IMG/VR virus record: IMGVR_UViG_3300049002_000011
Span: 6,995 to 70,994 of that record
Length of the DNA: 64,000 nucleotides
DNA from: a virus
Reading direction: 5' to 3' (one strand)
In this document: positions 5,301 to 56,338 of the stretch, one piece after another
Numbering within the stretch: the first letter of the stretch is position 1
Layout: each line of letters opens with the position of its first letter
Translations under genes and position numbers: made by a program
Notes under the pieces: model-generated
The model's database searches: none
What the model was told of the DNA's origin: nothing
Seen by the model: only the letters and a program-made list of their open reading frames with translations

Positions 5301-7216
5301 ATTTCCCACGCCCCTTTCACCGCGATGACCACCGCTTTGCCGTGTGAATTCCAGAGCGCTTCGATCAATCCCAACACGTTCGCAGTTAAAGTTTTTAACT
5401 GCGGCATGATGAGCCCGTAAGCGTCGCGTAGTTCATTCCACACTTGCAGCAGGAATCTCTTGATCGCATTCCACGCGGAGAGCGTCAGATCACGCACGCC
5501 GAGCCAGTTCGTTTTCCATATGGTGTAAACGGCGGTCGCGGTCGCGGTCGCCACAGCCGCAAGCTCGACGATGTAAATCGTGATCGCCGCTATCACGGCG
5601 CCGACAGGAATGAGAATCTCGGATAATGCTACAAAGCCACCCACCGCACCGGCCGCGGTCACCAGCGAAGCAATCGATCCGGCGAGTCCTAAAATTGCCG
5701 AGGCGACGGTGCCAACGATCACGAGCACCGGACCGAGCGAGGCGACAAAGCCCAGCAATGCAACGATCCCGGCTTTCACCCCGCCGGGCATTTGTTTCCA
5801 CGCATTTGTTGCCGTCTGAATCGCCGACACCAGGAACTCCGATAACGCTTTCACAACGGGCACGAGTATCGGCAGCAATTCCGCTCCGAGAGTTTCAAGA
5901 GCGTGACGCGCAGTGTTTTTGAAGATCTCGAATTGAAAGTTGAAAGTTTTGTTGACCGTCTCGAACGCTCGATCGGCGGCTCCGGATACACCCGGGTCTT
6001 CTTTCGCTGACTGCACGGTAGGAAGTTGCCGTAACAGCGTAGCGAAACCTTTCTGCGATCGAATGTCTGGAAATAGCCCCTGGACCAGCTTCGACTTGTC
6101 TACTTCCGAGAGCGTGTCATATTTCTTTTTAACTTCATCGAGTATCTGAATGAAGGGCAGAAATTCGCCGCGCGCGTTGTGCGTCTCGATGCCCAGCTCT
6201 TTCAAACCCTTCTGAGCTTCTTTGCCCGTGAACTGATTGAGGACCTGAGAGAGCTGCGTCATGTTCTCCGCGGCTGGTCCGGCTTCTTTGGTAGCGCCGA
6301 CGACGAGCGCCATTAACGTGTCGAAGTCAACGCCCGCGTTCTGGGCCGCCTTCGAAACTCCAGCGAGCTCGCGCGAGAGCTCGCCACCAGTGATGATGCC
6401 GCGGTTAACAGTCTGGAAGAACCGATCTTGAATGTGATCGACTTCGGTGGCTTTCATCCCGTAGGCGTTCATCACGCCGAGGATTGCTGTACCGAACTCT
6501 AATGCTTCGACGCGCGCGGCCGTCGCGCCCTTACCGAACTTCTCAGTGAGATTCAGCGTCGCCGCCTGGCCGATATCGTCGAGCGAAGAAACGATGTTGT
6601 AGGACGCCTCCCCGAGTTGTTCGCTCGTCTGCGGGATGCGTGTTTGCAGCAGTGAGAGTTTGTCGAAGACCTGTGACGCGTCGAAATCCGGTCGTATGGT
6701 CCGGATGAGCGAAACCTTCGACTCCAGATCACCGGCGAATTTGGCTGCGGCCGCTGAAGCGCCCGCGAGCGGCAAGGTCACACCTGCTGTAATCGCGGCA
6801 CCGGCGCGCTGCGCATCACGCGCCATGCCTTCGAGACTACCGCGTAAGTTATCAACCGCGGCTCGATGTCGTTGCAGCGCACTGGCGGCTTGCGTCTGCG
6901 CGTTTCGGTTCGCGTTAACAGCCTGCGTGTTTTGGTTGGTGGCGCGAGTGCCCTGGGTGACCGCGTTGCTGTTTTGATTGACGGCGTTGGTGGTCTGCCG
7001 GGTGTTATTACCCAGCAGGCTCATAGTTGTCGCCGCCTGATTATTGGCGTTGGCCCATGCTAAAAGCTTCTGTGTGTAAGACGCAACCTGGCCTTGACCG
7101 CTTTTGAGACCAGCAACGGTTTTCTCGTGCTTCTCATTTAAGCGGTCAAGGCCTTTTTCTGCGTCAGCGCCTTCGTAACCGGCACTAACTACCAGCGATG
7201 CTATTTCAGTTGCCAT
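2363..7216 (-). CDS. tail tape measure protein
   Basis: 1617 aa, Ala/Gly-rich helical, TP901-type core (GVTLPLAG...), central hydrophobic repeats, C-terminal GGMISGPGT...SRGEFIVNA motif. Confidence 0.95.
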   Translation of the reverse strand: MATEIASLVVSAGYEGADAEKGLDRLNEKHEKTVAGLKSGQGQVASYTQKLLAWANANNQAATTMSLLGNNTRQTTNAVNQNSNAVTQGTRATNQNTQAVNANRNAQTQAASALQRHRAAVDNLRGSLEGMARDAQRAGAAITAGVTLPLAGASAAAAKFAGDLESKVSLIRTIRPDFDASQVFDKLSLLQTRIPQTSEQLGEASYNIVSSLDDIGQAATLNLTEKFGKGATAARVEALEFGTAILGVMNAYGMKATEVDHIQDRFFQTVNRGIITGGELSRELAGVSKAAQNAGVDFDTLMALVVGATKEAGPAAENMTQLSQVLNQFTGKEAQKGLKELGIETHNARGEFLPFIQILDEVKKKYDTLSEVDKSKLVQGLFPDIRSQKGFATLLRQLPTVQSAKEDPGVSGAADRAFETVNKTFNFQFEIFKNTARHALETLGAELLPILVPVVKALSEFLVSAIQTATNAWKQMPGGVKAGIVALLGFVASLGPVLVIVGTVASAILGLAGSIASLVTAAGAVGGFVALSEILIPVGAVIAAITIYIVELAAVATATATAVYTIWKTNWLGVRDLTLSAWNAIKRFLLQVWNELRDAYGLIMPQLKTLTANVLGLIEALWNSHGKAVVIAVKGAWEIITTVIRTALRVISSVITAVLAMINGDWQTVWDMAIRIVDAFLAGFVTILLKAQQALTTLIAFLVAKAIEFQRAGLIWGAKLIVGLVTGIKGGAIEAVAAAVGIAIMLMSPSVLAAYAAAGVAQARARNQAYEANQNIQQTNQNPQRYNDEGEYVSGAPGYSDQSEKATATNSTRTSLPAGFGEGSKKSGQNAAAQKFKVEMQIAEVAVQTIERLNQKLLADADYYYSEGIQQLEQYVTAKRKASDDLFKAENERNNQEAFALAASGLRGRQRDLAEAQLSEKVKATWQKHSVAVTEIERFQSSERLSIQRSFQQATVTLAQEAASGTEAIWNRLAEQGVVSFGAAQKRIAQMQLEILQMQEQALVGEQSRLTPDTKQFNDVLAQLQEIRQRMANLLRQSGADADEANKREYERLQQHRDRLRGIYDSIADMTAETERDRLRLLEQMGVRKEVVWKKQAELEIAIERMATQRRTDDLRRQREYVEKFEKNEQRRAEIIAGINDQIEAEETRSAQRRQDIIADYYEKQRERLREAADKIVSTFKNALDKYKEEGWKGFFKSLGDSFRDTLEQMALDLVKSRVLSLLQTVFKIPQASGAGASGSQPSDAGNSGKGIFNSILSAFGLGRFGGVDDQATKTSTPIVSAVDRSTTQIVTAVRQAGALSNHATGSGGGTQNLVSSLLGTFTNNSPFAITEAGHEAVHAIDAAGESNAGAVDRTGKSTSSAIITAGQGMVGVMTQMLSIMANFGATGGFTWKGLFASMAIGALNGAIGGLTGGGSGSQGGIGSAAGKALSGLANGGMISGPGTTTSDSILGVDPNGVPTARVSRGEFIVNARATAKQRSALEYINATGELPGFSWGGFFKALSPVYAAVKSEKVRAIVSPAASMLGFGGQRGNKGLSWLFPVSNLFARANGGIIDSPSFAAPASRSSFSPSGGPVENHFHFSMPIYARDAADVKRSEGQIKRKMHDSLRQVAFRLA

Positions 7217-7819
7217 TGCCTCTCAGTTCGCGACGCTGAGCAGCAAGGTCAGCGGCGATTTGCTCTGCATCGCTCTCGGCTGCTTCAGCGCAGAGAGCCC
7301 ATTGCGTAATGCAAGTGGGAAGGTTGGCCAGATCCTTAATCGTGTAGGCGCCGCGGTAATACCGGACGGCGCGCACAATCGGATACCAGCTCGGGACAGA
7401 GCCCGCCTCGCCCCCGCTTCCTAAGAATTGGGCGAGGCTGGCTCGCTCGGAGGGTTTGCCATGTCACGCAGGTGCTCGGTGATTTGCTTGATGAAGGAAG
7501 CCATCATGCCATACGAGAGATTGAGCCAGTTCTCGTATGTCGGGTCGAAACGCTCGCCTTTGAGCACAATCGGTTCGCCCTTCTCATCGACCCACGATTG
7601 GATCAAATCCGAAAGCATTCTGGCGTTGTCGTCTTTGACTTCATCGGGAACGTCTGTTTCGTTCTCGCCGATGAGCTCCTCATTCGAGGTAGCCAGTGCG
7701 ATCAGTTTCGCCTTGTAAGTCGGCGTCAACTTCTCAGTGAAAACGTTGCAGTTGAATTGGTAGTTTTTGTACTTCACCTCACACGATGAAGTCTCATTCA
7801 AAAGATCACTTAGTTCCAT
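7206..7819 (-). CDS. tail assembly chaperone, long (-1 frameshift, gpGT-like) form
   Basis: After slippery A-AAC-CCT the -1 frame stays open (PSERASLAQFLGSGG...RRELRGNGN) to a TGA at 7208-7206 overlapping the tape-measure start. Confidence 0.8.
7421..7819 (-). CDS. tail assembly chaperone, short (gpG-like) form
   Basis: 132 aa acidic ORF between tail tube and tape measure. Confidence 0.8.
   Translation of the reverse strand: MELSDLLNETSSCEVKYKNYQFNCNVFTEKLTPTYKAKLIALATSNEELIGENETDVPDEVKDDNARMLSDLIQSWVDEKGEPIVLKGERFDPTYENWLNLSYGMMASFIKQITEHLRDMANPPSEPASPNS
7451..7457 (-). promoter_or_regulatory. -1 programmed frameshift slippery heptamer A AAC CCT
   Basis: X XXY YYZ heptamer in frame near the chaperone 3' end with an open -1 frame downstream. 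Confidence 0.75.
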
Positions 7820-22133: not shown

Positions 22134-22940
22134 TTAGTTGCCGGCGAGATAGTCGGCGCAAATCAGCTCGAGACAGCGACCCTCTGTGAGTGATTGATCG
22201 GCGCAAACGTAACGGACTTTCTCGAATGCCTGGTTAATGATCTCGCGCATGTTGGGCGTGATGCCGTTTATGGCGAGGTCATTCCGCGCGCGGTCAGCGG
22301 CATCCGGAGGCGGCGGCTTTACTTCACGCGGTTTCTTCTCTTGTGCAGGCGGTGAGTTTGCATCGACGGTCGTGAGGGCTTCGTGCTCCTGGCCAGCAAG
22401 ATCTTCAGTGCTGTCGTCGAGGTGCGCAAAGATGCTGGTCGGTTCCGATTCGGCGAACACCCCGAAGTCTTCGTCGCTGAAAGGCGCAACGTTCTCATCA
22501 TCGGGCACCCACGATCGCAAATCGCGAAGATGCGCCGGCAATCGATTTTCATCCCACTGGCTGGTTAAGCCGGTTTGATTGTCACTGATGCCATAGGCGC
22601 GCAGCTCCATTCCGGTCATACCGGTGGTAACAACCCAAATGTATTCCCAGCCTTCGAGCTCTGCGGCTTCGTGCGTGCCGTTGCCTTTTGCGATTACGCC
22701 GTCGCGGTCGACGACGATCGGCGTGACCTGGCCACGGTCTGGACGACGCAGCGAAGCGCGCAGCCCGGTAATGTTTCGATCCGGGTGCAGGCGTGCGTTC
22801 TCCGGGTCGCGCCTAACCGCGTCGAGTCGAACGATCAACTTGCTCGGATCGTCGCTAGTTGCAGTGCCGTGGTATGGCGCAAAGATCGGCAGTGACAGCG
22901 CCGCGATGAATTCTTGCTTGGTGGGTTTTTCTTTCTTCAT
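22134..22940 (-). CDS. ParB/Srx-like N-terminal domain protein
   Basis: DPENARLH...GQVTPIVVD...IAKGNGTHEAA...AYGISDNQT. Confidence 0.8.
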   Translation of the reverse strand: MKKEKPTKQEFIAALSLPIFAPYHGTATSDDPSKLIVRLDAVRRDPENARLHPDRNITGLRASLRRPDRGQVTPIVVDRDGVIAKGNGTHEAAELEGWEYIWVVTTGMTGMELRAYGISDNQTGLTSQWDENRLPAHLRDLRSWVPDDENVAPFSDEDFGVFAESEPTSIFAHLDDSTEDLAGQEHEALTTVDANSPPAQEKKPREVKPPPPDAADRARNDLAINGITPNMREIINQAFEKVRYVCADQSLTEGRCLELICADYLAGN

Positions 22941-23061
22941 GCGCGTGGCGTCATATCTCCAAACAAAAAACCACCCTCGGCGCAGTGCTCTTCCAGCATT
23001 GCGACGAATTCGCGGTTTCGTTCGTCGACGCGTTTCTGTTGTTCGATCGGATCGTGGTCCA

Positions 23062-24216
23062 TTAGATAGCAGCGTTGATAACGCGATGCGCGAGCGCGCG
23101 ATCGGCGGCAGGTCCGGCGAATTGAAAGACAGCGCATGGTCGCTCGCCAAAACCGGCCATGCTCAGTTCTGACTTGTTGATCTCACCACGCGCGGCCGCA
23201 AGCTTCCGCTGAATGCCGGTGAAGTTTGTTTTCGGTAAGCCGGGTTTAGCTTCCAGTGACCAGGCCGCGGATTTGTCGAACGATCGGATCAATGCGGGGT
23301 GCGCCGGGTAAGTTCTCATGCGTTTCCCGAGCGCCTTATACATCGAGCCAAGCTTGTCAACGAGCACCATTGCCAGTCCCAGACCTTGCCAGTCCGGCAA
23401 CGTTACGAGACGCGAGCATTTAATGATGTCCTTCACGATTGGGTGTGGGAAATGCAACATGCCGGCGAATGCGGCGAGACGATCATCGACGAACAAACCG
23501 AAGCATTGCGCTGCGCGGTGCAGCTCTCCGGTCAAATAGTGAAACGGAGCGAATTGCTTCCACGTGGACCACGGGACGCGCTCGATGGTGATGTTGAGAG
23601 TTGGGCGGCGCCGAAGTGACCTCCTTGTGAACGACATGGTCACAGGCTCGAAGATCCAGTCGGGCTGTAACCACTCGATCACGTCGTAGTGGCAAGTGGC
23701 CGCTACGAATTGTCGGTTATCTTTGCGCACCCGCTTTTGAATTGCGTGCGCGCCTATCTGCGCTACTTGTCGATCGACGACTGAGGTGAATTCGTCGACG
23801 ACGATAATTCCCTGAGTCTCCAACACTCGCCGTGCCATCTCCACCCGGAAACGTTCACCGTTCGAGAGCACATGGTAAGGACGTAGCCAGGCGGGAATGG
23901 TGTTAAAGCCGACAGCCTGGCAGACGTCGGCGATCTGGTCCATTTTGAAACGCTGATCGAAATCATCAACGACTGATTTGCCCTGCCAGTCGAATTGCTT
24001 TTCATCACCGAACACCTTGCGAAGAATGGTCGACTTACCCGCGCCTGAAGGTCCGACAATCAAACCAACGTTCCATTGCAGGCCCTCGATCGGGAAATCA
24101 CCTTGCCATGACAGCGAAGTCTTTTCTTTCGCCGGCACGTCAAACATCGCTTCGAGCTGGCGAGCTCGAGGGGAACGCGAAACGTCGCTTTCAACTTGAA
24201 TTGAAACTTTAGGCAT
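23062..24216 (-). CDS. ABC-type ATPase fused to GNAT-like acetyltransferase
   Basis: GPSGAGKST, LSNGE signature, VVDEF, H-loop ATCH; C-terminal RLVTLPDWQGLGLA acetyl-CoA motif. Confidence 0.85.
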   Translation of the reverse strand: MPKVSIQVESDVSRSPRARQLEAMFDVPAKEKTSLSWQGDFPIEGLQWNVGLIVGPSGAGKSTILRKVFGDEKQFDWQGKSVVDDFDQRFKMDQIADVCQAVGFNTIPAWLRPYHVLSNGERFRVEMARRVLETQGIIVVDEFTSVVDRQVAQIGAHAIQKRVRKDNRQFVAATCHYDVIEWLQPDWIFEPVTMSFTRRSLRRRPTLNITIERVPWSTWKQFAPFHYLTGELHRAAQCFGLFVDDRLAAFAGMLHFPHPIVKDIIKCSRLVTLPDWQGLGLAMVLVDKLGSMYKALGKRMRTYPAHPALIRSFDKSAAWSLEAKPGLPKTNFTGIQRKLAAARGEINKSELSMAGFGERPCAVFQFAGPAADRALAHRVINAAI

Positions 24217-24402
24217 ACTTCTTTAGCAGTCGCTCGCGGGTTTCAGTGTTTCGCCGGTACAGCGCGAGACACCTTTTGCAAGTAGTTGTTTCAATGCTCG
24301 CCGTCGTGACGATCGATCCTCTTCGACCGCAGTAAGCACCGTCACGTAACAAAACGAGATGCACTGAGAGTTTCACGTCACGAGCAGCGTTCCTTAACAG
24401 CT

Positions 24403-25053
24403 TTAAGAAATCAGCGGTCGGCACGTGATCCCCTCCAGTTCGAATGCGGCAAGTAGTTCCGCCTGGTGGGCTTCGTCGCGACAATCGACGATGACGCGAT
24501 AGGTGAGTGCGCCTAACTGTGACGACGTGTCATTTTCTGCCCCGGTTGTTGTAGTTCCGGATGCGCTCGTCAAAGCTTCGGCGCTATTCCCGTCAAGCGC
24601 GGGATTGCTCATGTAATCGTCACTGGCTTGTGCGTACAACGCATCGAACTCGGTTTGGTCCAGGAACCCAGCGTCGAGTAAATCGGAACCTATGTCGGCA
24701 ACGACATCCGGATCCGGGTTGTAACCAGCGTGCGAGGTTAGATTATCGACGTGTGCAAGCATCTGTGTGCGGCGATCGTCGCTGTCCAGATCGGTGCGCT
24801 GCACAACTACCAGTTTCTTTCCATCGGACTTCACCACGATGATGTCGTCGGGATTCGCGACGTCGCGCCACGCGTCAGTGGTCGTGTGGCCACCGATCAA
24901 CTCACCGTTACGATCGACGACGACGCTGCGTCCGGCTTTCAGCACTCGCAGCGATGCCTTTGTCAGTTCGCGGCCGCGATCCGTTCCGCGGTTAGGATTT
25001 CGCTCACGTGCGCGAATGTCGTCGAGCGACTTGATGTCTTTCGTTTCGCTCAT
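24403..25053 (-). CDS. ParB/Srx-like domain protein
   Basis: RNPNRG...SVVVDRNGELIGGH...LAHVDN; C-terminal VIVDCRDEAHQAELL. Confidence 0.75.
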   Translation of the reverse strand: MSETKDIKSLDDIRARERNPNRGTDRGRELTKASLRVLKAGRSVVVDRNGELIGGHTTTDAWRDVANPDDIIVVKSDGKKLVVVQRTDLDSDDRRTQMLAHVDNLTSHAGYNPDPDVVADIGSDLLDAGFLDQTEFDALYAQASDDYMSNPALDGNSAEALTSASGTTTTGAENDTSSQLGALTYRVIVDCRDEAHQAELLAAFELEGITCRPLIS

Positions 25054-27480: not shown

Positions 27481-27880
27481 TTTGTCCCTCGATCTGTCGA
27501 ATTTTCTGTGCCGTTTGCTCCGAGACGCGTTTGTCTTCACTCACCTGCTGCCGACTTTGCTGGACACCGGCATCGTTGACGTCGCGACGAACGGCCGCGT
27601 CGTTTGCATTGTCGCCATGCCGCGCCGCGTCCTGCAGGTTCTTGTTCGCGTTGCTCTCGATCTGGTTTACGGTCTGGGTAGTGTTGGCTGTGGCTCGATT
27701 CGTGCGCCACCGCTGTACGAAGTAGATCGACACGACAAGCGCGACGAATAGGACCACAGCCAACAAGATTTTGCCGCGTCGGTTGAGATGACACAGGCCG
27801 TCCCAGATCACTTGGAAAACTGTGCGTTGGTTGTTTATGTCTGGTGGCAGCAAAACTAAACCTCTCGGGCCTTGGTCCAT
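27380..27880 (-). CDS. inner-membrane spanin-like protein
   Basis: Single TM (ILLAVVLFVALVVSIYFV) followed by periplasmic coiled coil; directly after endolysin. Confidence 0.55.
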   Translation of the reverse strand: MDQGPRGLVLLPPDINNQRTVFQVIWDGLCHLNRRGKILLAVVLFVALVVSIYFVQRWRTNRATANTTQTVNQIESNANKNLQDAARHGDNANDAAVRRDVNDAGVQQSRQQVSEDKRVSEQTAQKIRQIEGQNEKTRSAGPDTRTISDDDLCARLAKLDPPVPCR

Positions 27881-28995
27881 TAGTCGGTAAGGAAATCGAC
27901 GGCGTGACGCGCAGCCCACTTTATCCAGTCGAGGATTTGCTTGTGATAAAGCACGACGGCAACAACCAGCACGAGCACTCCCAGAATTGTTCCAGAGATC
28001 GCGAGCGCGCTGCCGCCCTTTAATGCGGTGATGAGCAGAAGGATGGGACGCCATAACGCGGCAGCACCCCTTACACTCGCCACCTTTGCGGATTGTTTGA
28101 CGGACTCTTTTCGCAGCAATTTCTTGAAGTCGATGTCCGAACCCGCTCCTGGATCTGTGGTCGCCGGCGTTTGCGCTGGTTGCGCGTCGACCGACGTGGA
28201 CGTCGTGACACCCGCGGATATGGGACTCGACGCGTCCTGAACGGAATCCTGCGCGGGAATCGATGTTTTAGTGCGATTGTCAACAGGTTCGTCTACCGAT
28301 TTGTTGACAGGTTTGACGACCTCAACGGAGCCACGTGACGGAATTGCGCGGAGCGTGTTTTCGTAACGTGTCACACGATCGTCGAGTCCATTCAAACCAC
28401 CGTTGACGCCTTTGGTGAGCGCCTTCAAAACTTCAAACTCACGCGAATCTGATACGCCTCGTAGCTTATCCGCCACAGGATTCAATTGCTTTTCGTAAGT
28501 CCAGAACCACGCGGCCGCGCGGAATCCGTTCTCAGGCAGTTCGAGCAGCTCCGGATGTTCCTCGAGGGGAAGATTCAGCGCTAAACCCACTTTGCGATAC
28601 ATGTCTCGGCCGGTGATGCCGATCGGGCCTCGCGCAATGAACTTCCAACCGTCGCCAGGCATGAAGTTGCCGAGGTCTGAACGGTTGCCGTAGACGTGGT
28701 TTGCTAACGCGACGGGGTTGTGAGCGAGCTGGTTGGCGAGAGCGTCCGTCGGCACACGTTTCTTGAAGACCTTGCGAATTTGCTTCGCCGAGTAGTTCAT
28801 GTTCTCGCGCCAGTGAGTCAGGTCCATCGACTCGTGGCCGAGATGTGGGAGGTAAGCGCAAACGCGGATGCGCGTGTTAATGAAAGACTCGTCGAGCGAC
28901 GCTTGAATGAGGTCCAGCCAGGCGCGCGCTTTCGCGTCTGACAGACCTGGCATTGCGTTGCGCAACTGCGCGAGGGTGAGCTTAAAGGATTTCAT
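27880..28995 (-). CDS. endolysin, glycoside hydrolase family 19, with C-terminal hydrophobic helices
   Basis: HLGHES...RENMNYS, GDGWKFIARGPIGITGR..Y, AAAWFW, VNGGLNGLDDR. Confidence 0.9.
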   Translation of the reverse strand: MKSFKLTLAQLRNAMPGLSDAKARAWLDLIQASLDESFINTRIRVCAYLPHLGHESMDLTHWRENMNYSAKQIRKVFKKRVPTDALANQLAHNPVALANHVYGNRSDLGNFMPGDGWKFIARGPIGITGRDMYRKVGLALNLPLEEHPELLELPENGFRAAAWFWTYEKQLNPVADKLRGVSDSREFEVLKALTKGVNGGLNGLDDRVTRYENTLRAIPSRGSVEVVKPVNKSVDEPVDNRTKTSIPAQDSVQDASSPISAGVTTSTSVDAQPAQTPATTDPGAGSDIDFKKLLRKESVKQSAKVASVRGAAALWRPILLLITALKGGSALAISGTILGVLVLVVAVVLYHKQILDWIKWAARHAVDFLTD

Positions 28996-29186
28996 GCGGT
29001 GCTTCCCGGCAGGAGATCGATCGCTATCGGCGAGCACCAGCACCACTCATTTGAGTGGGGGCGCGTATCGGACGCTGTGACCTTGTGAATCACTTTCACC
29101 TTTTGAAACCATGCAAACGTCCGGCGACCGCCAGTCAATCGATTGATCAACGTGCGGTCGCGCAGACGATTAAGAAATTGAATCAT
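28992..29186 (-). CDS. small hypothetical protein
   Basis: 64 aa, H...CWCSP motif, stop overlaps endolysin start. Confidence 0.5.
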   Translation of the reverse strand: MIQFLNRLRDRTLINRLTGGRRTFAWFQKVKVIHKVTASDTRPHSNEWCWCSPIAIDLLPGSTA

Positions 29187-29509
29187 GGTGAATGAAAATG
29201 AATGAAAGTGAATAAGAAGCCGGTCACGCGCACAGCTCGAGTTCGACTGTTTGGTTGGCGTCGAGAGTGCCCCTGGACGGAGCGGCGGGAACCTCGTTCA
29301 CAGACTTTCGCCTGCTACAAAGTGTTTGGTGGTAAACGAGTGTGCGCGTGAATCTCAAAATCGAAAAGTTAATTGGAGAGCAAAAGAAAAAGCGCTGACT
29401 CCGGAAAGCGAATGATCCGGAATTTGCGCCTCGGTAGGTTCGGCCGCAACGTTTACGGCCCTACACGGCAAACATACCAACAAACAGCGTTGACACGCAA
29501 GAGATATCA

Positions 29510-37717: not shown

Positions 37718-38407
37718 TCAAACAATCGCACGCCGCAATTCTCCTTCGAGATTGACGTCACAACCGCATCGACGATCGTGACCGCCAAGTTTTTCAGCCA
37801 ACCAGACGTCGAGCTTCCCGATCGACATCCAGACATTTCGTTCCTGCACCTGAAAATACCACGCGTGCAGTGCGGCGGCTTCAGCCCATGACCACACGAC
37901 ATGCGCGGATTTGTCTTGCGATCGCAGCCAAGCGAGTTCACGCACCTGATCCCACTCGGCCGAGGCGTCGTCGATCAGTTCGTTGTGCCGAACTTTGAGC
38001 TCGATGAAGAGACCGGAAAAGGTTTGTTTGTAATCTGCGCCCTCCCACGGCTCCCCCATTTCAACGTGCGTGACTTGCGCGTGGTTTGCGACGTCAAGAA
38101 TGCCAGGCTTCACGCCTTCGGCCTTGCGTTTCGCTCCCGCCGGCGAATAGGTAACACGTCCACGAGTTGTGTCACGCGTTACTGTCTCCGAGATCAATTC
38201 ATTCGCCGGATGATAGGAGCGCGCAAACTCAGGGACGTGTTTGGACCACAAGCCCAACCACCGAAACAACGTTTGCTGGTGTGTCGATTCATCAGTCTTC
38301 TGTTTCAGCGTTAAGGCTCGCAGTGACGTCGAGAGAGTGCGCGCTCTCGTTTGTCGACCGCCTACAGTCGGGAACAGACTCCCGACTAAATCCAAGTTCT
38401 TCGCCAT
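37718..38407 (-). CDS. VRR-NUC domain nuclease
   Basis: ESTHQ...YHPANE...KAEGVKPGILD...LFIELK. Confidence 0.8.
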   Translation of the reverse strand: MAKNLDLVGSLFPTVGGRQTRARTLSTSLRALTLKQKTDESTHQQTLFRWLGLWSKHVPEFARSYHPANELISETVTRDTTRGRVTYSPAGAKRKAEGVKPGILDVANHAQVTHVEMGEPWEGADYKQTFSGLFIELKVRHNELIDDASAEWDQVRELAWLRSQDKSAHVVWSWAEAAALHAWYFQVQERNVWMSIGKLDVWLAEKLGGHDRRCGCDVNLEGELRRAIV

Positions 38408-38696: not shown

Positions 38697-39503
38697 TCAA
38701 GACGCCAGGCCTGCGGCTGGCTGTGCTTTTCGGCCCGCTCCATCAATACTCCCAGGAGGATCAACGCCAAAGTCTTTGGCGCTATAAACGCGTTCGGCGC
38801 GAATCTGCGCTTCGAAGCAAGGTAAGTTTTTGATGAACAAACCAACGAGAAACGGATCGTAGTGGGAGCCCGAGCCATCGAGCACGAGGTCGATCGCCGC
38901 CTGGCGGGTCATGCCTTTTCGATACGGTCGATCTTCACGTACCGCGTCGAAGCAATCGACGATCGAAAGCACGCGCGCGGTTAGTGGAATTGCAGCGCCG
39001 CTCAGCCCGTCCGGATAACCAGCTCCGTCCCAACGTTCGTGATGGTGACGCACGCACGAAACGATCGGAAACTCAAAATCGATGTGTTCCAGGATCTGAG
39101 CGCCGACGATGGGGTGCAACTTCATCCGATCGAATTCATCGGCAGTTAACTTGCCGGCTTTGCCGAGAATATTATCCGGCACGCCGATCTTCCCAACGTC
39201 GTGCAGCAACGCGCCTTCTTCAAGCGCGCGTATCTCGAGCTCGCTGCAACCTGCCAGTCGACCAAGGCCCATCGCGTAGATCTGGACGCGCCGAACGTGG
39301 TCAAAAGTCAGTCTGTCCTTTGCGTTGATCGCAGTGGCGAGAGCTTCAATCGTACGTCTCTGCATCTGCGAAGACATTGTCCTTACAACGCTCGGTACCC
39401 ACCGATGCATACGCAGCAGCAGATAACCAATCAAAATTGTGATGAAAATACGCCAGAAAAATGCTACATCAAGGGCCAAACCGGGAAAGATAAAGGCATC
39501 CAT
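38697..39503 (-). CDS. membrane-anchored HD-GYP cyclic dinucleotide phosphodiesterase
   Basis: N-terminal TM; DHVRRV, LHDVGKIG, HHERWDGAGYPDGL, VDCFDA, RPYR. Confidence 0.9.
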   Translation of the reverse strand: MDAFIFPGLALDVAFFWRIFITILIGYLLLRMHRWVPSVVRTMSSQMQRRTIEALATAINAKDRLTFDHVRRVQIYAMGLGRLAGCSELEIRALEEGALLHDVGKIGVPDNILGKAGKLTADEFDRMKLHPIVGAQILEHIDFEFPIVSCVRHHHERWDGAGYPDGLSGAAIPLTARVLSIVDCFDAVREDRPYRKGMTRQAAIDLVLDGSGSHYDPFLVGLFIKNLPCFEAQIRAERVYSAKDFGVDPPGSIDGAGRKAQPAAGLAS

Positions 39504-39562
39504 ACACGAAGTTCCTCAGAAAGCAGGGGGGGCCGAAACGCAGGGTTGTTGGTTGACTCTGA

Positions 39563-40135
39563 TGCAGGGAGATGCGGCTTTAGTTTCACGTGAAACATGA
39601 TCCACCGCGCTGCCTCGCAAAGATGCGACAACACACCGCTTTACGTCAATAGCAACGGATGAAGCAATGGTTTCACGCGCCGTGAAACACGACGAGGGAC
39701 GCCCTCCCAAGCGTCCCTCGCTCGCTCCCGCCGGGAGCGAATCGGTCTCAAGCTGAGCCCAGGTGCTGACCTCCTCCGCTTGAGCACTTGCCTTTAAGTG
39801 CCGCGGATTCTCGCACACGCGCAAATCTTGTAAACTGGTTTTTGAGCGTTCGTTGCGTGGCATCGGTTAGCTGGGAGTGCGTGGGCGCACAGGCCTCGCC
39901 TGATAAGCACGTGGATCGGCCTCGAGGTTTGCCGTTCAGAGCGGCGCCGGAAGCGAGCCATGAAAAATCTCTCTTTCCGCTCATCGAGTAAGGCGGACGG
40001 CGAACGCTCCCCGTTCGTAGCTTATTAAACGACAACACGCACACGACCTCGCAATGCAAACTTGAGAGCAAACCGAGCGACGTAGCGCCGGGTCAACCTC
40101 AGACGTGCTCCGCACGCGGAGATACCCTCCCTGCA
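39563..40135 (-). ncRNA. candidate ~570-nt structured non-coding RNA (strand inferred from flanking genes)
   Basis: Ends pair (TGCAGGGAG/CTCCCTGCA); about ten internal hairpins of 5-10 bp; no credible ORF. Confidence 0.5.
39582..39597. promoter_or_regulatory. parS centromere-like site
   Basis: AGTTTCACGTGAAACA matches 15/16 of the canonical TGTTTCACGTGAAACA parS. Confidence 0.65.
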
Positions 40136-40177
40136 CGATAGCTATCCTTAACAGCACCTAGAAGCGTTTGCGATTGG

Positions 40178-40489
40178 TTATGCGCTGGCGTTGTCGGAGA
40201 CGAGTTTCTGTGAAATCGGAAGATTGACTGCTGTCATCTGTGAGAATAGCGTCTGTTTGCGCAACATTAGACGCTGCTCGCGTTTGGTCCGTGCCTGCAT
40301 CGTTCTCTCCATGATGTAACCGCACTCAACGCAACTGAGCGAAATGCCGGACATTTCAGCGCCCCATTCTACTTCCAACACTGTGCCTCTGAGTTCGAGC
40401 CGACATAGTTCGCAGAGCGTCACGACGCGAATCGCTTTCAGCGGACCGCGCGGTTTCCAGTGATAACGATTTACCTCGATACGTGGCAT
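40178..40489 (-). CDS. zinc-ribbon hypothetical protein
   Basis: CELC...CVECG. Confidence 0.5.
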   Translation of the reverse strand: MPRIEVNRYHWKPRGPLKAIRVVTLCELCRLELRGTVLEVEWGAEMSGISLSCVECGYIMERTMQARTKREQRLMLRKQTLFSQMTAVNLPISQKLVSDNASA

Positions 40490-40762: not shown

Positions 40763-40801
40763 AAAAACACGAACGGGAGGCGATTCGGCGCGCCTCCCGT
40801 T
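40763..40801 (-). terminator. intrinsic terminator (possibly bidirectional)
   Basis: 11-bp stem AACGGGAGGCG/CGCCTCCCGTT with T-rich tails. Confidence 0.6.
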
Positions 40802-40826: not shown

Positions 40827-41342
40827 TCATTTCGCGAAGAACACGACCGTGTCGTCTCGCTTTTCCATCTTGACCGCGCCCACGCTGGCGGCGATCTTCG
40901 CGAGACGCAGTTCGTATTTGGCATCGAGCGCGGTGGCGCGCAGAGGTTTCGCTGACGTGTGTTTGTTAATCTTCGCGACTAATTCCTGCGTCGATTCACG
41001 CGCCATTACTCTCTCTTTCCACGTAGCGCCATCTTTCGAGGCGCGTGCCGCGCGAGCCTTTGTGCCTTTGGCGGTGGACGGTTTTGATTGTGGGACCTTC
41101 GCCTCCGGAACGCGCACGGCGAAGATCGGCGGATCGAATTTTGTGCTGCCGATCGCGTAGACGGATTTCACTACCGCGCCTTCAGGAACGCTGGTGGGTC
41201 GCTCTGCGTAGTAGGTCTTTCCGTGCATCGTAGGGTTATCGAGGTTGTTTATTCTCTGTCCAAAGGTGATGCCGAGCTTTTTGGCTTTCGCGGCGTTGTC
41301 ATTGCCAGTCGCTTTGCTTTTTTTGGTCGTCTTTTTAGCCAT
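40827..41342 (-). CDS. Lys-rich hypothetical protein
   Basis: 171 aa; RBS GGAGAACAAAACG; flanked by a promoter-like site and a terminator. Confidence 0.65.
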   Translation of the reverse strand: MAKKTTKKSKATGNDNAAKAKKLGITFGQRINNLDNPTMHGKTYYAERPTSVPEGAVVKSVYAIGSTKFDPPIFAVRVPEAKVPQSKPSTAKGTKARAARASKDGATWKERVMARESTQELVAKINKHTSAKPLRATALDAKYELRLAKIAASVGAVKMEKRDDTVVFFAK

Positions 41343-41944
41343 CGTTTTGTTCTCCGTCGATAATTGGAATTTGTTAAAGCAGGCATACTATTGCACCGCG
41401 CAACGGAAAAGCCAACTCCTTTTTTAGCATTTTCTGCCACGCGGTTTAACTGTCTTTTGCTGAGTGACGCGCGATTGCGCGTGCTCTGCGTTCCTCCGCG
41501 TTTTGGTCGCAGTCCGCGTAAATCCATGCCCGGATCGATCTGGTGCGTTCCTACGTCTATTCCTAATCGCCGCGCGTGTGTTTCAAGACGTGCGACGACC
41601 TCACGCAGCTCGACATCTGAGAATTTCCGATGACCGCGCCACCTCAGTTCCAGTTGGTGGTAAGCAAAGTCGCCCCACTTCGTTTTGAACCATTCACGAT
41701 AGGGCTTTTTGTTGTACGTGTGGCGCTCATTACAGGGCCAGCATTGGCGGTAACAATTGCCGCCACGCTGCACGTCCCATCGTGTTGAATGGTTCGTTCG
41801 ACCGAATAGGTGTCCACACGTTGGTTGCGCGACTGAGCCACACGTCACGCACGCGTGGTCCAGTACGATGACGATCGTGGACGTCAACTCATCCGCTCGA
41901 ATCACAAGCAGATCGCGTTCCGTTCGACGTGCTTGGTGTCTCAT
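41249..41944 (-). CDS. NinG/Rap-like HNH endonuclease
   Basis: CVTCG...CGHLFGR...STRWD...NCYRQCWPCN. Confidence 0.8.
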   Translation of the reverse strand: MRHQARRTERDLLVIRADELTSTIVIVLDHACVTCGSVAQPTCGHLFGRTNHSTRWDVQRGGNCYRQCWPCNERHTYNKKPYREWFKTKWGDFAYHQLELRWRGHRKFSDVELREVVARLETHARRLGIDVGTHQIDPGMDLRGLRPKRGGTQSTRNRASLSKRQLNRVAENAKKGVGFSVARCNSMPALTNSNYRRRTKRWLKRRPKKAKRLAMTTPRKPKSSASPLDRE

Positions 41945-43284: not shown

Positions 43285-43517
43285 CGTTTGCTCCCTTTCC
43301 CTGTTGTCTTTCTTTTCCGATCAACGTTGATGCGGCGCTGCGCCTCAATAATTCCTTTACGCAACTCTTCGCTTAGTTGAATTGCATCATGCACAGGCAG
43401 ATCGAAGAAAACGCTAACCACTTCATTCGTTAGTTGAATCTCGACCTCGCCGACCGCCTGCACGTTTGCATGTACCGACAGGTACAGCCTCTTGTGTTTT
43501 GTCTTTACTTCAATCAC
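43281..43517 (-). CDS. hypothetical protein
   Basis: GTG start overlapping upstream TGA with GGAG RBS. Confidence 0.5.
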   Translation of the reverse strand: MIEVKTKHKRLYLSVHANVQAVGEVEIQLTNEVVSVFFDLPVHDAIQLSEELRKGIIEAQRRINVDRKRKTTGKGSKR

Positions 43518-44134
43518 GCCGGCAACTCTCCTTTCATTTTTCCGGTGGTTAAAATCGTCAGCAGCCGCAGAGCTAGCATTCGTTCCTGCATCGTCTTGCC
43601 TTTGGTCGACGCCTGCATTGCCTGTTGTGTCAGCGTGGTGCGACGTTTGGGCCACAGATCAGGCCCGCGGTGCCCGAGCTGCCACAGATGCAGCCATGTC
43701 TGCCAGTACATGCCGTTCTCTTCGCGGTCCTGAACGATCGTGTGCATCACGAGACCTGAACGGCGGTTGGCTTCGCGCTCGCCCATGTGTTCATCGACGA
43801 AGGCGCAACCAAAAGGCGACACGGAATGAACCGCGCAGCGGCCGTCAACAAAGTGAATGCACGCTCCTGTTTCACTTGCGCGGGGAATGATCGTGGGGAT
43901 TCTGAGTAGCCCTTCTTTGTTGGCGACGACCGCGCCGGGAGAAGCCGTCAAAAACTTCTCAGCGTAAGCGAGCCGATCGGTGTAGCCGGCTGCGAGGGGC
44001 ATTTGAATGAGATCGAGCGGTGAAAGGTAACCCGGCATATACGAGCAAAACTTCGCGCAGTCGTGACACATGCACGTGGTCCGCTCAAACCCGTATTCGT
44101 TTCGTGGTCCGTTTGTTAGTGTCGTTGGCATCAT
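43514..44134 (-). CDS. YkgJ-like Cys-cluster (Zn/Fe-S) protein
   Basis: CMCHDCAKFC...GACIHF..GRCAVH...PFGC. Confidence 0.65.
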   Translation of the reverse strand: MMPTTLTNGPRNEYGFERTTCMCHDCAKFCSYMPGYLSPLDLIQMPLAAGYTDRLAYAEKFLTASPGAVVANKEGLLRIPTIIPRASETGACIHFVDGRCAVHSVSPFGCAFVDEHMGEREANRRSGLVMHTIVQDREENGMYWQTWLHLWQLGHRGPDLWPKRRTTLTQQAMQASTKGKTMQERMLALRLLTILTTGKMKGELPA

Positions 44135-44260
44135 TAGCCTCGCGTGTTGGGTGTGTTGAGACAGCATCGAGTCGTGCACCGCAGCGGGGGCAAGTCTTAC
44201 GACCGCCCCGCAACGGCAACCACTCGCGACCATACGAGCATTGCACTTCGCGTTTGCCGC

Positions 44261-45286
44261 TCATGCACGCTTCGCCAGTGAGAACTTGCGGCGCCGTACG
44301 ACGACTGCTTTGTCGAGCTCGCCTTTGATGCGTTCGAACTCTTTCAGCACGGCGGTGCGCGTATCCACGTTGTCACGCAAACGTTCGGCCGTGACGCCAG
44401 TCACTGCCTGGCGCGCGCGTTTCGCGAGTCGATTCAGCTCTTCGACGTTCGTGATATTGCGTGCTTCGAACGACGCCAGGAATTCATTGATGCGCTGGAC
44501 CATCGAATCACGGAACACGTTTGGTTTGCCCTCTTCGTCAGTGCCAAGACGGCTAACAGCGTGCGCGATGATCTCCTGATATCCGACGGCGAGTGCTCGC
44601 GGAATATCCGCGGCCGCGTCCTGCCACTGGGCTTCGACTTTGCGTTGCTGCCGCTCCCAGATTTCACGATTCACCTTTTCGAGCTGCGTTGGCAGACTGA
44701 GCGACGGTCGCCAGTTCGCGTCGACTACAAAAGCCTTACGTAGTTCCTTCGGCGTGGGATAATCACGCTGGTCGAAGTGCTCGGCGAGACGTCTGCGCGC
44801 TTCTGACACCAGCTCGTCATAGCGCTCGATCAATCCATCGAGCAGCTCGTCTCGTTTCTCGATGAACGCGGCAACTTCGTCATCAACTTTGTCCACCAGG
44901 CCAAGAGGGATCACGTACATCCCGCCTCGCAGCATCCGCTCGGGCAACGGCACTTCCTGTAACCACAGCCAACGCGTTAGAGCGCCCTTTGACTTGCTCA
45001 ACTCACAGAGCGCGTCCTTGTCGATCAGATCCTTCGAGACATGCACCATGCTTGGATCTACGCCCGCCTCGTCGGTGTCTCGGTCGCCGTTTTTGATTAT
45101 GTCCTCACTGTTGATCTTCTTGCGGAATGAGGGTGCATGAACGCGCAGGTCCAGCACCACGCTGTTCTCAATCACTGCCTGAGTGTCGGCGTCCAGAATG
45201 CGCGGTTGAATGACACGCAGCTTGCTACGGCGCAACGCGTCGGGCGTGCCGCTCTTCTTTGTCTTTTTTAATGTCGATGCTTTCAT
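44261..45286 (-). CDS. DUF3150-like protein
   Basis: VSKDLID, GMYVIP, EARRRL..HF...DYP, KPNVFRDS motifs. Confidence 0.6.
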   Translation of the reverse strand: MKASTLKKTKKSGTPDALRRSKLRVIQPRILDADTQAVIENSVVLDLRVHAPSFRKKINSEDIIKNGDRDTDEAGVDPSMVHVSKDLIDKDALCELSKSKGALTRWLWLQEVPLPERMLRGGMYVIPLGLVDKVDDEVAAFIEKRDELLDGLIERYDELVSEARRRLAEHFDQRDYPTPKELRKAFVVDANWRPSLSLPTQLEKVNREIWERQQRKVEAQWQDAAADIPRALAVGYQEIIAHAVSRLGTDEEGKPNVFRDSMVQRINEFLASFEARNITNVEELNRLAKRARQAVTGVTAERLRDNVDTRTAVLKEFERIKGELDKAVVVRRRKFSLAKRA

Positions 45287-46186: not shown

Positions 46187-47776
46187 CTAGTTGAGTTTTG
46201 CGTTACGCGGTCCACCGATCGAGAGACGTCGACCGCCCTTTTGTCCGTTGCTCTCGCTTTCATCGCCGGACGTTGTCTGGAACACCTTACCCGTTGCGGC
46301 ATCGAGTAACTTGCCATGCGCTTCACGCCGTCGGCGTGCGATATCATCGGAAGCGGATTGCGCCACCGGAATGATGTATTGAGCAACCTGGTCCGGCGTT
46401 GTTCTGAGTTTCTTGGCGAGGTCCACGCACCGTTGAATTTCTGATCCGGTCCAGTCTTTGTCTGGTATCGTCGTCGCGTATTGTTCATCAAAGCCGTAAG
46501 CTTTCAGATACATGCGCCACGCCTCGCGACGCGCCTCCTTGTTCATCAGATCAAAGAAGAAAGTCGGCAACCCAAAGCGGCGTTTGAGTTCTGGCTTGAT
46601 GGGAGAGAATTCGTTGCACGTGGCAATGAACAAGACTCGTTGACCGCCCACCGCCTGAACGACCTTGAAAGCTTCGCGCGTGTAACGACCTGATTCGCCC
46701 ACCAACTTGTCCTGCATTTCGCCCATGTCGAAATAGATGGTCGGACAGCCAGCCTCGTTACCGATGGTTTTGGCCAGCAGTGTTTTCCCGGTACCCGGAT
46801 GCCCGTAAAGAATCGATCCGGTCCAATTGTTATCCTGCATTTGCGTAAGAATCACCCCGAGCTGATCGTTCGCTGTTCCGGACGTATCACCGAGGCCTCC
46901 GACAATGCCGGTCTTATCGAGCTCGTCAATGAATACAACCAACGCCGGCGGCTCATCACCAGCGATGTACGCACGAAAGAAATCTACAGCGCCGTCGATC
47001 CCGCGCGTATCCTTAAAGGTCTGTCCTTCACGCCAAACAGTCAGACCGCGGTTCTGCTCGATCATCTGACGCTTGCGCTCCCAAAGAGCCTTCATGTTTA
47101 TAAACGCGCGGTCCTGCTCATCGAGCTCGAGCGCCATCGATATCACTTGTTCAGCGGAGAACGCGGCGAGACCTCGCAACGCGTCAACGATTTTTGGCGT
47201 ACAGGTGAGATTCGCGGCGACCGCATCATCGGAAGAAACGAGCGTGTCGGTCACGATGCCCTCTAACTGCGCGTCATCTGGTCTCGGCTCTTGAAGCAAG
47301 AAAACATCGTTCGCTACTTCCGGCGGCAGGGTAATACTGGAGCCCAGCAGCACCAGCGTGCGACCGTCCTGTTTGAACTGATCGCGCAGGTTTGCTATCG
47401 CCTGCACAAATCCGTTTGGTCCTTCCGTGTTGCCGGTCCAGTAACGAGGCGCGTTGTGAATGAACAAGATGCTGGTTTCTGGTAACTGCGGCGCCAGCAT
47501 GAGAGACTCAACCGGATTCCCGGTAACCGATTTGATGTCCGCTTTCAGCTCGGCGCTTAGCTGGAGCAACACTTTCTCTCCCACTGCATTCACGCTCTGC
47601 CAGCCGTTACATACATCCCAGGCAATCATCGGAGCCGCGTCGCCCGTTTGAACATCATCGACAGGCACGCTCTTGATCGTAGTAATCGTCGCCCACGGAT
47701 CCGGCGTCTCAATTCCCACAAGTGGCGTCGACGTTTGTCGCGCTATCGCGAATTGTTCAAGCATTTTCGTCATCAT
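46187..47776 (-). CDS. Ycf46-like AAA ATPase (degenerate N-terminal ATPase domain plus rearranged AAA core)
   Basis: TPLVGIETPD, LRGL, RKRQMIEQ..GL, VVFIDELDK, GHPGTGKTLLAK, KLVGES, IATCN, PELKRRF, WTGSEI. Confidence 0.75.
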   Translation of the reverse strand: MMTKMLEQFAIARQTSTPLVGIETPDPWATITTIKSVPVDDVQTGDAAPMIAWDVCNGWQSVNAVGEKVLLQLSAELKADIKSVTGNPVESLMLAPQLPETSILFIHNAPRYWTGNTEGPNGFVQAIANLRDQFKQDGRTLVLLGSSITLPPEVANDVFLLQEPRPDDAQLEGIVTDTLVSSDDAVAANLTCTPKIVDALRGLAAFSAEQVISMALELDEQDRAFINMKALWERKRQMIEQNRGLTVWREGQTFKDTRGIDGAVDFFRAYIAGDEPPALVVFIDELDKTGIVGGLGDTSGTANDQLGVILTQMQDNNWTGSILYGHPGTGKTLLAKTIGNEAGCPTIYFDMGEMQDKLVGESGRYTREAFKVVQAVGGQRVLFIATCNEFSPIKPELKRRFGLPTFFFDLMNKEARREAWRMYLKAYGFDEQYATTIPDKDWTGSEIQRCVDLAKKLRTTPDQVAQYIIPVAQSASDDIARRRREAHGKLLDAATGKVFQTTSGDESESNGQKGGRRLSIGGPRNAKLN

Positions 47777-53229: not shown

Positions 53230-53994
53230 CTATCCGGATTTTTTGGTTGCTTGTTTCAGCATCTCCCGGACCTCGTCTGCCGAAGCCCGATCTGATTCTG
53301 CGGGCGCCTTTAATTCTTGGCGTTGTTGGAAACGCGCTTGTTCAGAGCGCATCTTGGCGGCAAAGTACTCACGAATGTCTTCGTCCCAATCTCCGTTTTT
53401 GGATTTGAAGATCCACCCCTTGCCGAGTTTGGGAGTTTGAGCACTTGCGTATTCAACTCTTTGCTCCCTGGAAAACTCGGAGAGACACACACGCTCTGTT
53501 GTTTGTATGTGTGTGTGTGTGTTTTTAAAACTAATATTAGGACTCGCGCTTCCGGAGTTAAATTTCTTAACTGCGGCATGGTTTAAATTTTTTACTTCGA
53601 GTGCAGTTAAATTCTTTGACTCCGAATCGTGCAGGTCCTGAACGTTGAGCGGCAATGCGCGCTGTTTTTCGGGCTCTGTTTTGGAGGGAAGGACTCTGAG
53701 GTTCTGAGTCTTCAGTAAGCGGTAGCGGTAGGCCTCACGTGACGCGCCGCGGCGTCTCCCGATACACCCGCGACCCACCAAATTATCGAGCGCGGTTATC
53801 ACTGTCGGACGCGTCATGCCGGTCAGTTCCATCCACTCCTCGATTTTCAATTGGACTTCTTCACGCTGCCAGCCAGCGGTTTGATCAATCAGTGCAACTA
53901 CGCATTTGGTTTCGGCTCCACCTAGGACGGGAAGCCAAGTACGGGCAAAGACATCGGGCATCTTTGAAAACCCGTTGTCTCTCATGCACGACAC
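53230..53994 (-). CDS. replication initiator (lambda O-like winged HTH)
   Basis: GFSKMPD...QTAGWQ...MELTGMTRPTVITALDNLVGRG; internal AT-rich iterons. Confidence 0.75.
   Translation of the reverse strand: MSCMRDNGFSKMPDVFARTWLPVLGGAETKCVVALIDQTAGWQREEVQLKIEEWMELTGMTRPTVITALDNLVGRGCIGRRRGASREAYRYRLLKTQNLRVLPSKTEPEKQRALPLNVQDLHDSESKNLTALEVKNLNHAAVKKFNSGSASPNISFKNTHTHIQTTERVCLSEFSREQRVEYASAQTPKLGKGWIFKSKNGDWDEDIREYFAAKMRSEQARFQQRQELKAPAESDRASADEVREMLKQATKKSG
53505..53621. repeat. putative replication origin: three iterons plus AT-rich tract inside the initiator gene
   Basis: GTTAAATTTCTTAACT, GTTTAAATTTTTTACT, GTTAAATTCTTTGACT at ~24-25 bp spacing next to TTTTTAAAACTAATATTAG. Confidence 0.6.
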
Positions 53995-55963: not shown

Positions 55964-56338
55964 GCAGCCACGACGACAACGCCCAATATGTTTGCACGAC
56001 GCAGCCACTCTGTCTTTGCATTGGTGAGAGCACGGACGCTCTCGCTGAATACGAATGTAGCTGCACGGGCAACATGCCGGGTTGTTCGAGAAAACGCTGC
56101 GAGAACTGCGACGCTCAGCTCAGATTAACACGAGACGAGTAAGCCCTTTAAAAGAGGATGAGCGCGCCGTTCGACTTACGGCGCGCTCGGAGCAAACGAC
56201 AGTTGACCACAACAAAAGGGAGGGCCAGCTTTAGGCGGGCACCGCTCTCAAAGCGGCTACTGTCATTCGTGCGAAGAATAGCACGGTTGCTCCGAGCGCG
56301 CATCGACAAAACAAACGCGACCGCGAGGAGCGAAACGA

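Follow-up and report, generated by a model that had tools for sequence, protein, structure and literature searches.

The DNA analyzed here is a 64,000-nt window of a viral genome (positions 6995-70994 of a 70,994-nt IMG/VR record, classed as 'linear' and with a completeness estimate of 87%), and the element in question is a gene-free gap of 674 nt that lies, within a minus-strand gene block running from about 54000 down to 300, between a small orphan gene and a gene for an HD-GYP protein (Table 1). A preliminary description had seen in this gap a single, ornate non-coding RNA of about 570 nt (39563-40135) with paired ends. We found instead that the part of the gap proximal to the HD-GYP gene contains a perfect core of the bacterial chromosomal parS site, next to a train of hairpins, and we propose below that the gap could be a composite control region combining a ParB loading site with terminator-like elements.

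Table 1. Features of the gap and of its surroundings, with window coordinates (aa, amino acids).
Feature	Position	Strand	Remarks
O-like replication initiator	53230-53994	-	PHROG E 8e-15; TIGR01610 below its cut-off
ParB-family protein, 598 aa	50800-52596	-	Pfam ParB_N and HTH_ParB; 11 kb from parS
AAA ATPase	46187-47776	-	
NinG/Rap-type nuclease	41249-41944	-	
Strongest intrinsic-terminator-like hairpin of the region	40772-40801	-	11-bp stem, tail CGTGTTTTTA; directly after the 171-aa gene
Orphan, zinc-ribbon-like (two CxxC pairs), 103 aa	40178-40489	-	codon score +0.105; directly upstream of the gap
Gene-free gap, 674 nt	39504-40177		bounded by the stop of the 103-aa reading frame and the HD-GYP start
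Distal half of the gap, 337 nt	39841-40177		no fold, coding or repeat signal; no role proposed
Sigma-70-like promoter match	39807-39834	-	TTTACA-16-GAGAAT, TG before the -10; weak; just upstream of the hairpin train
Hairpin 1	39784-39801		6-7-bp stem; -5.6 and -6.3 kcal/mol; kept in centroid folds
Hairpin 2	39747-39784		7-bp outer stem and inner stems; -16.1 and -17.5 kcal/mol; repeat I8
Hairpin 3	39722-39740		perfect 8-bp GC-rich stem, 3-nt loop; -13.4 kcal/mol
Hairpin 4	39693-39720	-	perfect 10-bp stem, then TCGTGTTTC; -21.8 kcal/mol (minus), -19.4 (plus); terminator-like
Hairpin 5, parS-like palindrome	39670-39688		arms GTTTCAC/GTGAAAC with 5 extra central bases
parS, AGTTTCACGTGAAACA	39582-39597		15/16 consensus positions, perfect 14-bp core
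HD-GYP gene, 268 aa	38697-39503	-	HD and HHERWDGAGYP motifs; Pfam HD_5 E 1.5e-36; directly downstream of the gap
Endolysin	27880-29046	-	

The gap shows no coding signal. The nine open reading frames (ORFs) of at least 25 aa, inside it or reaching into it, that were scored have per-codon scores from -0.27 to +0.07, as compared with a mean of +0.17 for the 30 training genes and +0.10 to +0.24 for the flanking 103-, 88- and 171-aa genes. None displays the pattern of GC content by codon position that is typical of the phage (0.60/0.44/0.64), and the three longest match neither Pfam nor PHROG. An arginine-rich ORF of 55 aa (39794-39961) was considered as an N-like peptide and dropped on its codon score of -0.15. 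These data confirm that some 670 bp are devoid of a credible gene. That the region around them is otherwise tightly packed, as had also been stated, is only partly true: several other stretches of 300-700 nt are without a called gene, a comparison that is approximate since it relies on a crude gene caller which misses overlapping genes. In GC content, the gap and its surroundings (0.56-0.60) resemble the neighbouring genes.

We then compared the folding energy of each strand with that of shuffled sequences, using 20 shuffles for the whole gap, 100 for its distal half and 200 for the core of the hairpin train. As a whole, the gap folds little better than shuffled sequence, with z-scores of -1.67 on the minus strand (2/20 shuffles as good) and -1.25 on the plus strand (1/20). 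The proximal part (39560-39840) lies beyond the shuffles (z -3.23 and -3.42). As for the distal half, 76 and 74 of 100 shuffles are at least as good as the minus and plus strands, respectively (z +0.71 and +0.73), and it occupies middle ranks in a phage-internal fold scan of 911 windows. All the hairpins reported in the preliminary description are indeed present, but the four that lie beyond 39840 (39877-39890, 39976-39997, 40001-40017 and 40108-40121) fold only weakly, at -5 to -7 kcal/mol, and belong to this stretch that folds no better than shuffles. In the same way, the 9-nt complement between the two ends of the supposed RNA exists, but at a frequency expected by chance: inverted 9-nt pairs with a separation of 100 nt or more average 0.97 per shuffle of the gap, and the share of sequences with one or more of them is 50.6% for 1000 shuffles and 50.3% for real 674-nt windows taken from this phage. 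A miniature inverted-repeat transposable element, or another transposon with terminal inverted repeats, was rejected on the same chance-level complement, and no target duplication was seen by eye.

Searches for known RNA families were also negative. Rfam 15, with its models for GOLLD, ROOL, HEARO, OLE, raiA, RNase P, tmRNA, introns and riboswitches, gave no match at the gathering score over the whole window, and with E values up to 10 the segment 39350-40350 returned only flg-Rhizobiales (14.5 bits for a threshold of 55, E 2.8). ARAGORN detected no tRNA or tmRNA. A cyclic di-GMP (c-di-GMP) riboswitch ahead of the HD-GYP gene was likewise discarded, as no Rfam match was obtained. The idea of a single RNA of about 570 nt, forming an undescribed class comparable to GOLLD and ROOL, can invoke the minus-strand minimum-energy fold, which does pair both ends, as well as the non-coding nature of the region and the strong structure of its proximal part. 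However, it is at odds with the z-scores of the whole gap and of its distal 337 nt, with a closing helix expected about once by chance, with the lack of an Rfam family or of any homologue in the collections searched, and with the fact that two of its 'hairpins' correspond to parS-type DNA palindromes. It thereby falls short on the very test that the preliminary description had set for it, and we consider it extremely unlikely. The gap is probably not one large RNA, and a new class of large phage RNA should not be counted here because the evidence fails to support it.

Two other places in the window are worth mentioning for their structure. The 321 nt upstream of the endolysin gene (29040-29360, minus strand), with a gene-free stretch of roughly 310 nt, exceed the gap, with a z-score of -5.90 and none of 100 shuffles as good, and the best minus-strand ranks of the phage-internal scan fall within them. 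On the plus strand, the most structured window is 6931-7350 (residual z -4.0), which covers the beginning of the tape-measure gene and a short interval ahead of the following gene.

The parS site had been missed in the preliminary description. Its core, GTTTCACGTGAAAC, occupies positions 39583-39596 and is an exact copy of the 14-bp chromosomal core; the consensus used, TGTTTCAC-GTGAAACA, is that given in the methods of bioRxiv 10.1101/724823. No other such site occurs in the window or in the whole 71-kb record, and by our own arithmetic about 0.0015 matches with at most one mismatch are expected in 64 kb. The window contains only six spacerless palindromes with arms of at least 7 bases, parS among them. 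A shuffle control allowing up to three mismatches was not discriminating, since 37 of 100 shuffles had a match. The arms of the site are found a second time: the window has two instances of the pattern GTTTCAC-N(0-8)-GTGAAAC, neither of them outside the gap, for an expectation of 0.01, and none of 100 shuffles reaches two. This second copy is hairpin 5, 87 nt from parS, and the two have flanking bases in common (repeats D1 and D3; 10 of 16 flank positions by our own count). Judging from their sequence, two of the palindromes in the gap are parS-type DNA sites.

Split copies with inserts of 6-7 bp are also present in real bacterial parS clusters of metagenomes. A metagenome scan for the arrangement 'parS, 60-90 nt, split parS' returned 34 stretches, and the flanks of the nine that were scanned are chromosomal (TsaD, UPF0102, YebC, or gidB-parA-parB); beyond parS, the split-parS metagenome loci have nothing in common with the gap. 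These loci (L217-L250, e.g. L218:2001-2112 and L246) are chromosomal parS arrays, several of them in TsaD-UPF0102-YebC neighbourhoods, in which the arms of the split parS are perfectly kept and the central insert of 6-7 bp yields a longer palindrome. We know of no description of such split copies in bacterial arrays, for which no literature search was made.

The second component of the gap is the train of five hairpins packed into about 130 nt (39670-39801). Perfect stem-loops of at least 8 bp number 17 in 64 kb, and three of them (39670-39688, 39693-39720 and 39722-39740) fall within 71 nt, for which our own arithmetic gives a chance expectation of about 0.0025. The 146-nt core of the train (39660-39805) has z-scores of -3.46 on the minus strand and -5.46 on the plus strand, with 0/200 shuffles as good on either. 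In the phage-internal, GC-corrected scan, the 281-nt window starting at 39551 ranks 4 on the minus strand and 52 on the plus strand of 911 overlapping windows; after control of composition, the fold signal has no strand preference. Hairpin 4 is terminator-like. Eight of its 10 bp are GC pairs and, on the minus strand, the stem reaches 12 bp if G-U pairs are counted, around a GGGA loop. Its tail TCGTGTTTC has 5 T in 9 positions, so that the U-tract is interrupted, and resembles the tail CGTGTTTTTA of hairpin 40801-40772; for T-richness of the minus-strand tail it comes joint second of the 17 stem-loops (tied with 56160-56188), behind that same 40772-40801. The arms of hairpin 3 pair nowhere else, and one of them has one more exact copy at 38131.

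One could assume that all these palindromes are DNA sites for several dimeric regulators, or cruciforms, forming a switch to downstream expression without any role for RNA. The perfect Watson-Crick stems and the absence of strand preference would agree with such a cluster of operators, and candidate DNA-binding proteins are encoded just upstream, namely the 103-aa zinc-ribbon-like orphan and the 171-aa basic protein. On the other hand, loops of 3-8 nt with GC-rich arms of 8-10 bp are more typical of RNA hairpins, and it would not be parsimonious to call on four regulators for four adjacent sites. Moreover, no arm of the four non-parS hairpins turns up again as a palindrome at another place in the phage, so that RNA hairpins fit better than repeated operators. 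This explanation is, in our opinion, very unlikely.

Another possibility is that the train gives rise to a smaller, discrete structured RNA of about 110-250 nt. One candidate would start at the promoter-like site (39834-39807) and end at hairpin 39720-39693 or further down, near 39560. Such an RNA could be a replication primer or antisense RNA of a plasmid prophage (ColE1 or RedRock type), an immunity RNA, or an antiterminator RNA that modifies the polymerase. The promoter-like site is located immediately upstream of the train, and the 146-nt core is beyond shuffles on both strands, as sense/antisense kissing systems require. The record also has no integrase match and carries an adjacent parS, and PMC7157519 describes integrase-less mycobacteriophages that express, from about 600 bp beside the partition cassette, a non-coding RNA needed for prophage replication. 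However, no Rfam family matches, the promoter match is at chance level, neither strand is preferred, and the phage has a protein-type origin elsewhere, in the O-like gene with its iterons. We regard this smaller RNA as unlikely, although it deserves to be kept in mind.

We favor a composite control region in which a parS-type ParB loading site, acting as DNA, would be combined with terminator or attenuator hairpins in the HD-GYP leader, and we estimate the probability of this reading at about one half. The gap lies at the boundary between the replication and nin-type genes and the downstream genes. From its sequence, we infer the following scenario for ParB binding, transcription and termination. 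A ParB-CTP clamp would load at the perfect parS and slide onto the adjoining DNA. This clamp would most likely be made of the host chromosomal ParB, and less likely of the 598-aa orphan ParB of the phage. The site would allow the prophage to ride the host partition system as a plasmid, in agreement with the failure to find an integrase, a recombinase, a ParA or a protelomerase: none of the models Phage_integrase, Resolvase, AAA_31, CbiA and ResT-TelK is matched in the whole 71-kb record. The loaded ParB could also damp transcription of the adjoining HD-GYP gene. The GC-rich hairpins 39693-39801, for their part, would be contained in any minus-strand transcript entering this gene and could act as terminators or attenuators in its leader, possibly started at the promoter-like site, with hairpin 39720-39693 and its T-rich tail as the main stop. 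The earlier fallback proposal of a long regulatory leader for the HD-GYP gene comes near to what these data permit, inasmuch as the gap is non-coding, lies directly upstream on the coding strand, and holds the hairpin cluster in its proximal 240 nt or so.

Several observations weigh against this composite region. Concerning the site, there is only one perfect parS, and the 5-bp insert of the second copy would shift its two half-sites out of phase for a single dimer. The exact 14-mer was found in at least 132 viral-contig stretches, which is about chance level by a rough estimate, and none of the 80 of these loci that we considered has a ParB-like gene within 2 kb; none has genes in common with the window either. 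Concerning transcription, the choice of the minus strand has to face perfect palindromes whose plus-strand z-scores are equal or better. Both the promoter and the terminator assignments are weak, with no excess of promoter-like matches between 26000 and 45000 (7, against 8.4 +/- 2.8 in shuffles), nor of terminator-like sites (20, against 23.5 +/- 4.2). Concerning the protein, the 598-aa ParB is altered at four of the eight parS-contacting positions named for Caulobacter ParB in 10.1101/724823 (Q162S, R173H, N178R and R204L). The parS core, with at most one mismatch, is absent from all 40 whole records of phages with related ParBs, and among 80 ParB loci (1.34 Mb) the 16-mer with up to two mismatches was found at one place for 0.35 expected. 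Finally, the absences of integrase and ParA are soft because the record is estimated to be only 87% complete.

The changed contacts of the phage ParB and the lack of the site in phages with related ParBs make it more likely that parS is read by a host ParB. The phage protein belongs to the ParB family. It reaches 128 bits with TIGR00180 (cut-off 58.45), with a resemblance to PRTRC-type long ParBs that stays below cut-off; it matches the structures of Spo0J, Noc and Caulobacter ParB with E values of 1e-28 to 1e-26, and it has the motifs GERRW and ENVQRE in place. When aligned with Caulobacter ParB, it retains G170, K171, S172 and G201. R173, which it has lost, is described in 10.1101/724823 as absolutely conserved among ParB orthologues. 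The changes at 178 and 204 are shared by the consensus of 14 long ParB relatives. This ParB is an orphan, no ParA (AAA_31, CbiA) being matched in the 71-kb record, and the survey in PMC12704722 came upon numerous orphan ParB genes, carried by prophages and further mobile elements.

The family to which it belongs consists of long orphan ParBs (71 protein-search matches) that have in common two changed DNA contacts, R at position 178 and L at position 204, and cysteines conserved in a C-terminal extension. The nearest of these relatives, with 50% identity, is encoded on an ENA contig of 22 kb. A ParB-family alignment search confirmed 557 viral loci; in 80 of them, the only other parts of the window to be matched were 43514-44233, 44261-45286 and the endolysin, in one or two loci each. 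A relative of 624 aa is encoded in a bacterial genome, where the surrounding 80-kb stretch has nothing else in common with the window. Elsewhere in the phage, upstream of the terminase region (22134-25053), two more ParB-like proteins according to PHROG, both without a Pfam ParB match, flank an ABC-type ATPase/GNAT-like protein.

The HD-GYP gene looks, from sequence comparison, like a captured c-di-GMP phosphodiesterase module. Its nearest bacterial relative is part of an 825-aa ORF, with 56% protein identity and 70% DNA identity over 464 nt, and the phage protein corresponds to the matching part standing alone, with a hydrophobic N-terminus. The genome carrying this closest relative has two perfect parS cores, 43 bp apart, with its 291-aa ParB at a distance of about 1 kb; no more follows from this than the use of the site by such lineages, and the genome need not be that of the host. 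One could wonder whether the gap could be a functionless junction scar, left over from the capture of a bacterial fragment, with its palindromes, including a host-derived parS, as neutral passengers. The resemblance of the HD-GYP protein to a portion of a bacterial ORF goes in this direction, as do the neighbours, which are all orphans, and the exact parS 14-mer is common enough in viral contigs for a chance origin or carriage. However, the DNA upstream of the bacterial ORF has no similarity to the gap, the GC content of the gap is close to that of neighbouring genes, and a perfect parS with a flank-sharing copy beside three perfect GC-rich hairpins is far beyond the background of the window. 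Such a scar is rather unlikely.

Attempts to find relatives of the locus were unsuccessful. Neither the comparison by blastn of 39400-40300 with 50,697 phage records nor that of the gap with 72,556 plasmids gave any match, and an exact hairpin 30-mer was found in no viral contig. Single-protein searches for the locus in viral contigs, starting from the HD-GYP, 103-aa, NinG and ParB proteins, provided no confirmed relative in any. In a clustered protein database, the 103- and 171-aa proteins match only themselves, and protein-atlas look-ups with both gave sub-threshold leads only; the C-terminus of the 171-aa basic protein has a weak winged-helix resemblance (TM 0.3-0.37), which is also a lead only. 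An exhaustive HMMER search with the 588-aa downstream protein, among 1.84 billion representatives, recovered the protein itself and one partial relative of 232 aa.

The wider organization of the genome can be described as follows. The NinG/Rap-type nuclease gene is followed by the orphan 171-, 88- and 103-aa genes, the gap and the HD-GYP gene, then by about 10 kb of unknown genes, the endolysin gene and the terminase, portal, capsid and tail genes. Beyond 54400, the plus strand codes for a LexA-type repressor domain, RecT and an exonuclease. The virus looks like a temperate soil siphophage; the single sequencing run containing the sequence is a DNA soil metagenome, perhaps the sample of origin, and no run recorded as RNA contains it. 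Inside the O-like gene, at 53556-53624, there are three iteron-like direct repeats, each about 20 nt long and with a spacing of 24-25 nt, which probably form a lambda-type origin. Each of these repeats has an internal dyad symmetry, in a patch that is AT-rich and structured. Their position within the O-like gene would place a protein-primed origin there and not in the gap, for which a lambda-type origin was rejected on this ground. An attP in the gap was discarded as well, no integrase having been found.

How the gap relates to known regulatory regions depends on the component considered. With bacterial chromosomal parS it shares the exact 14-bp core and 15 of 16 positions, in a genome that also encodes a protein with ParB_N and HTH_ParB. 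It differs by its single perfect site, by a ParB gene 11 kb away with four of eight contacts changed, and by the lack of a detected ParA; by inspection, the phage ParB also has no match to the N-terminal ParA-binding motif as it is defined in PMC12704722. Like plasmid prophages (N15 with IR1-4 and SopB, P1 with its parS, mycobacteriophages with parABS), the phage has no detected integrase and a centromere-type palindrome in a regulatory gap; unlike it, these encode their own ParA and ParB and have their own site sequences, whereas the site found here is of the host-chromosome type, with no ParA found. In N15, two of the sites lie near late-expression controls. According to PMC7205306, N15 is lambdoid-like and persists in plasmid form, and the binding of SopB to its IR sites can shut off a promoter some 50 bp distant. 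Long-range silencing is also known for KorB of plasmid RK2, a ParB-family CTP clamp that loads at the palindrome OB, slides and represses promoters, as stated in PMC11790492. KorB structures match the phage ParB (E 3e-14), but neither a KorA-like partner nor repeated OB-type sites were identified, and silencing by the phage site is presumed. The RNA origin of RedRock and Alma, as presented in PMC7157519, also resides in a non-coding region of about 600 bp by a partition site, in phages without integrase. Unlike RedRock and Alma, the present phage has an O-like initiator with iterons elsewhere, no parA and a distant parB, with no sequence similarity.

A comparison can also be made with late leaders. 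In lambda, the leader has the layout PR'-qut-6S RNA-tR', and HK022 has put RNAs. Like the lambda late leader, the gap lies downstream of a NinG-type gene and presents a promoter-like site followed by stable hairpins, one of them terminator-like. Unlike it, no Q-type antiterminator is recognisable upstream (the 171-, 88- and 103-aa proteins have no Pfam, PHROG or NCBIfam match, although, as orphans, they could include a novel regulator), and neither lysis nor head genes come next, the endolysin being 10 kb and the terminase 20 kb further. With GOLLD, ROOL and HEARO, the gap shares a long non-coding phage stretch with several hairpins, but it has no covariance-model match, half of it is unstructured, and no homologues were found.

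A more far-reaching hypothesis would be that the proximal 250 nt or so form a maintenance module, in which a host-type parS hijacking the host ParAB would be fused to a multi-hairpin RNA that primes or controls plasmid replication, or gates the c-di-GMP-degrading HD-GYP protein. Judged from the sequence features at hand, this is quite doubtful. If it were true, it would represent a partition strategy without a phage ParA, coupled to an undescribed RNA element.

Returning to the composite control region, the locus also carries a caution for scans of viral genomes, since a perfect palindrome taken for an 'RNA hairpin' may instead be a protein-binding site on DNA. It provides a clear example of a phage that carries the host-chromosome parS in its exact form and also encodes an orphan ParB in which drift has altered the residues that read DNA. 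If the host ParB does bind the site, the phage would gain, through borrowed host machinery, either a cheap means of plasmid inheritance or the silencing of a cargo gene.

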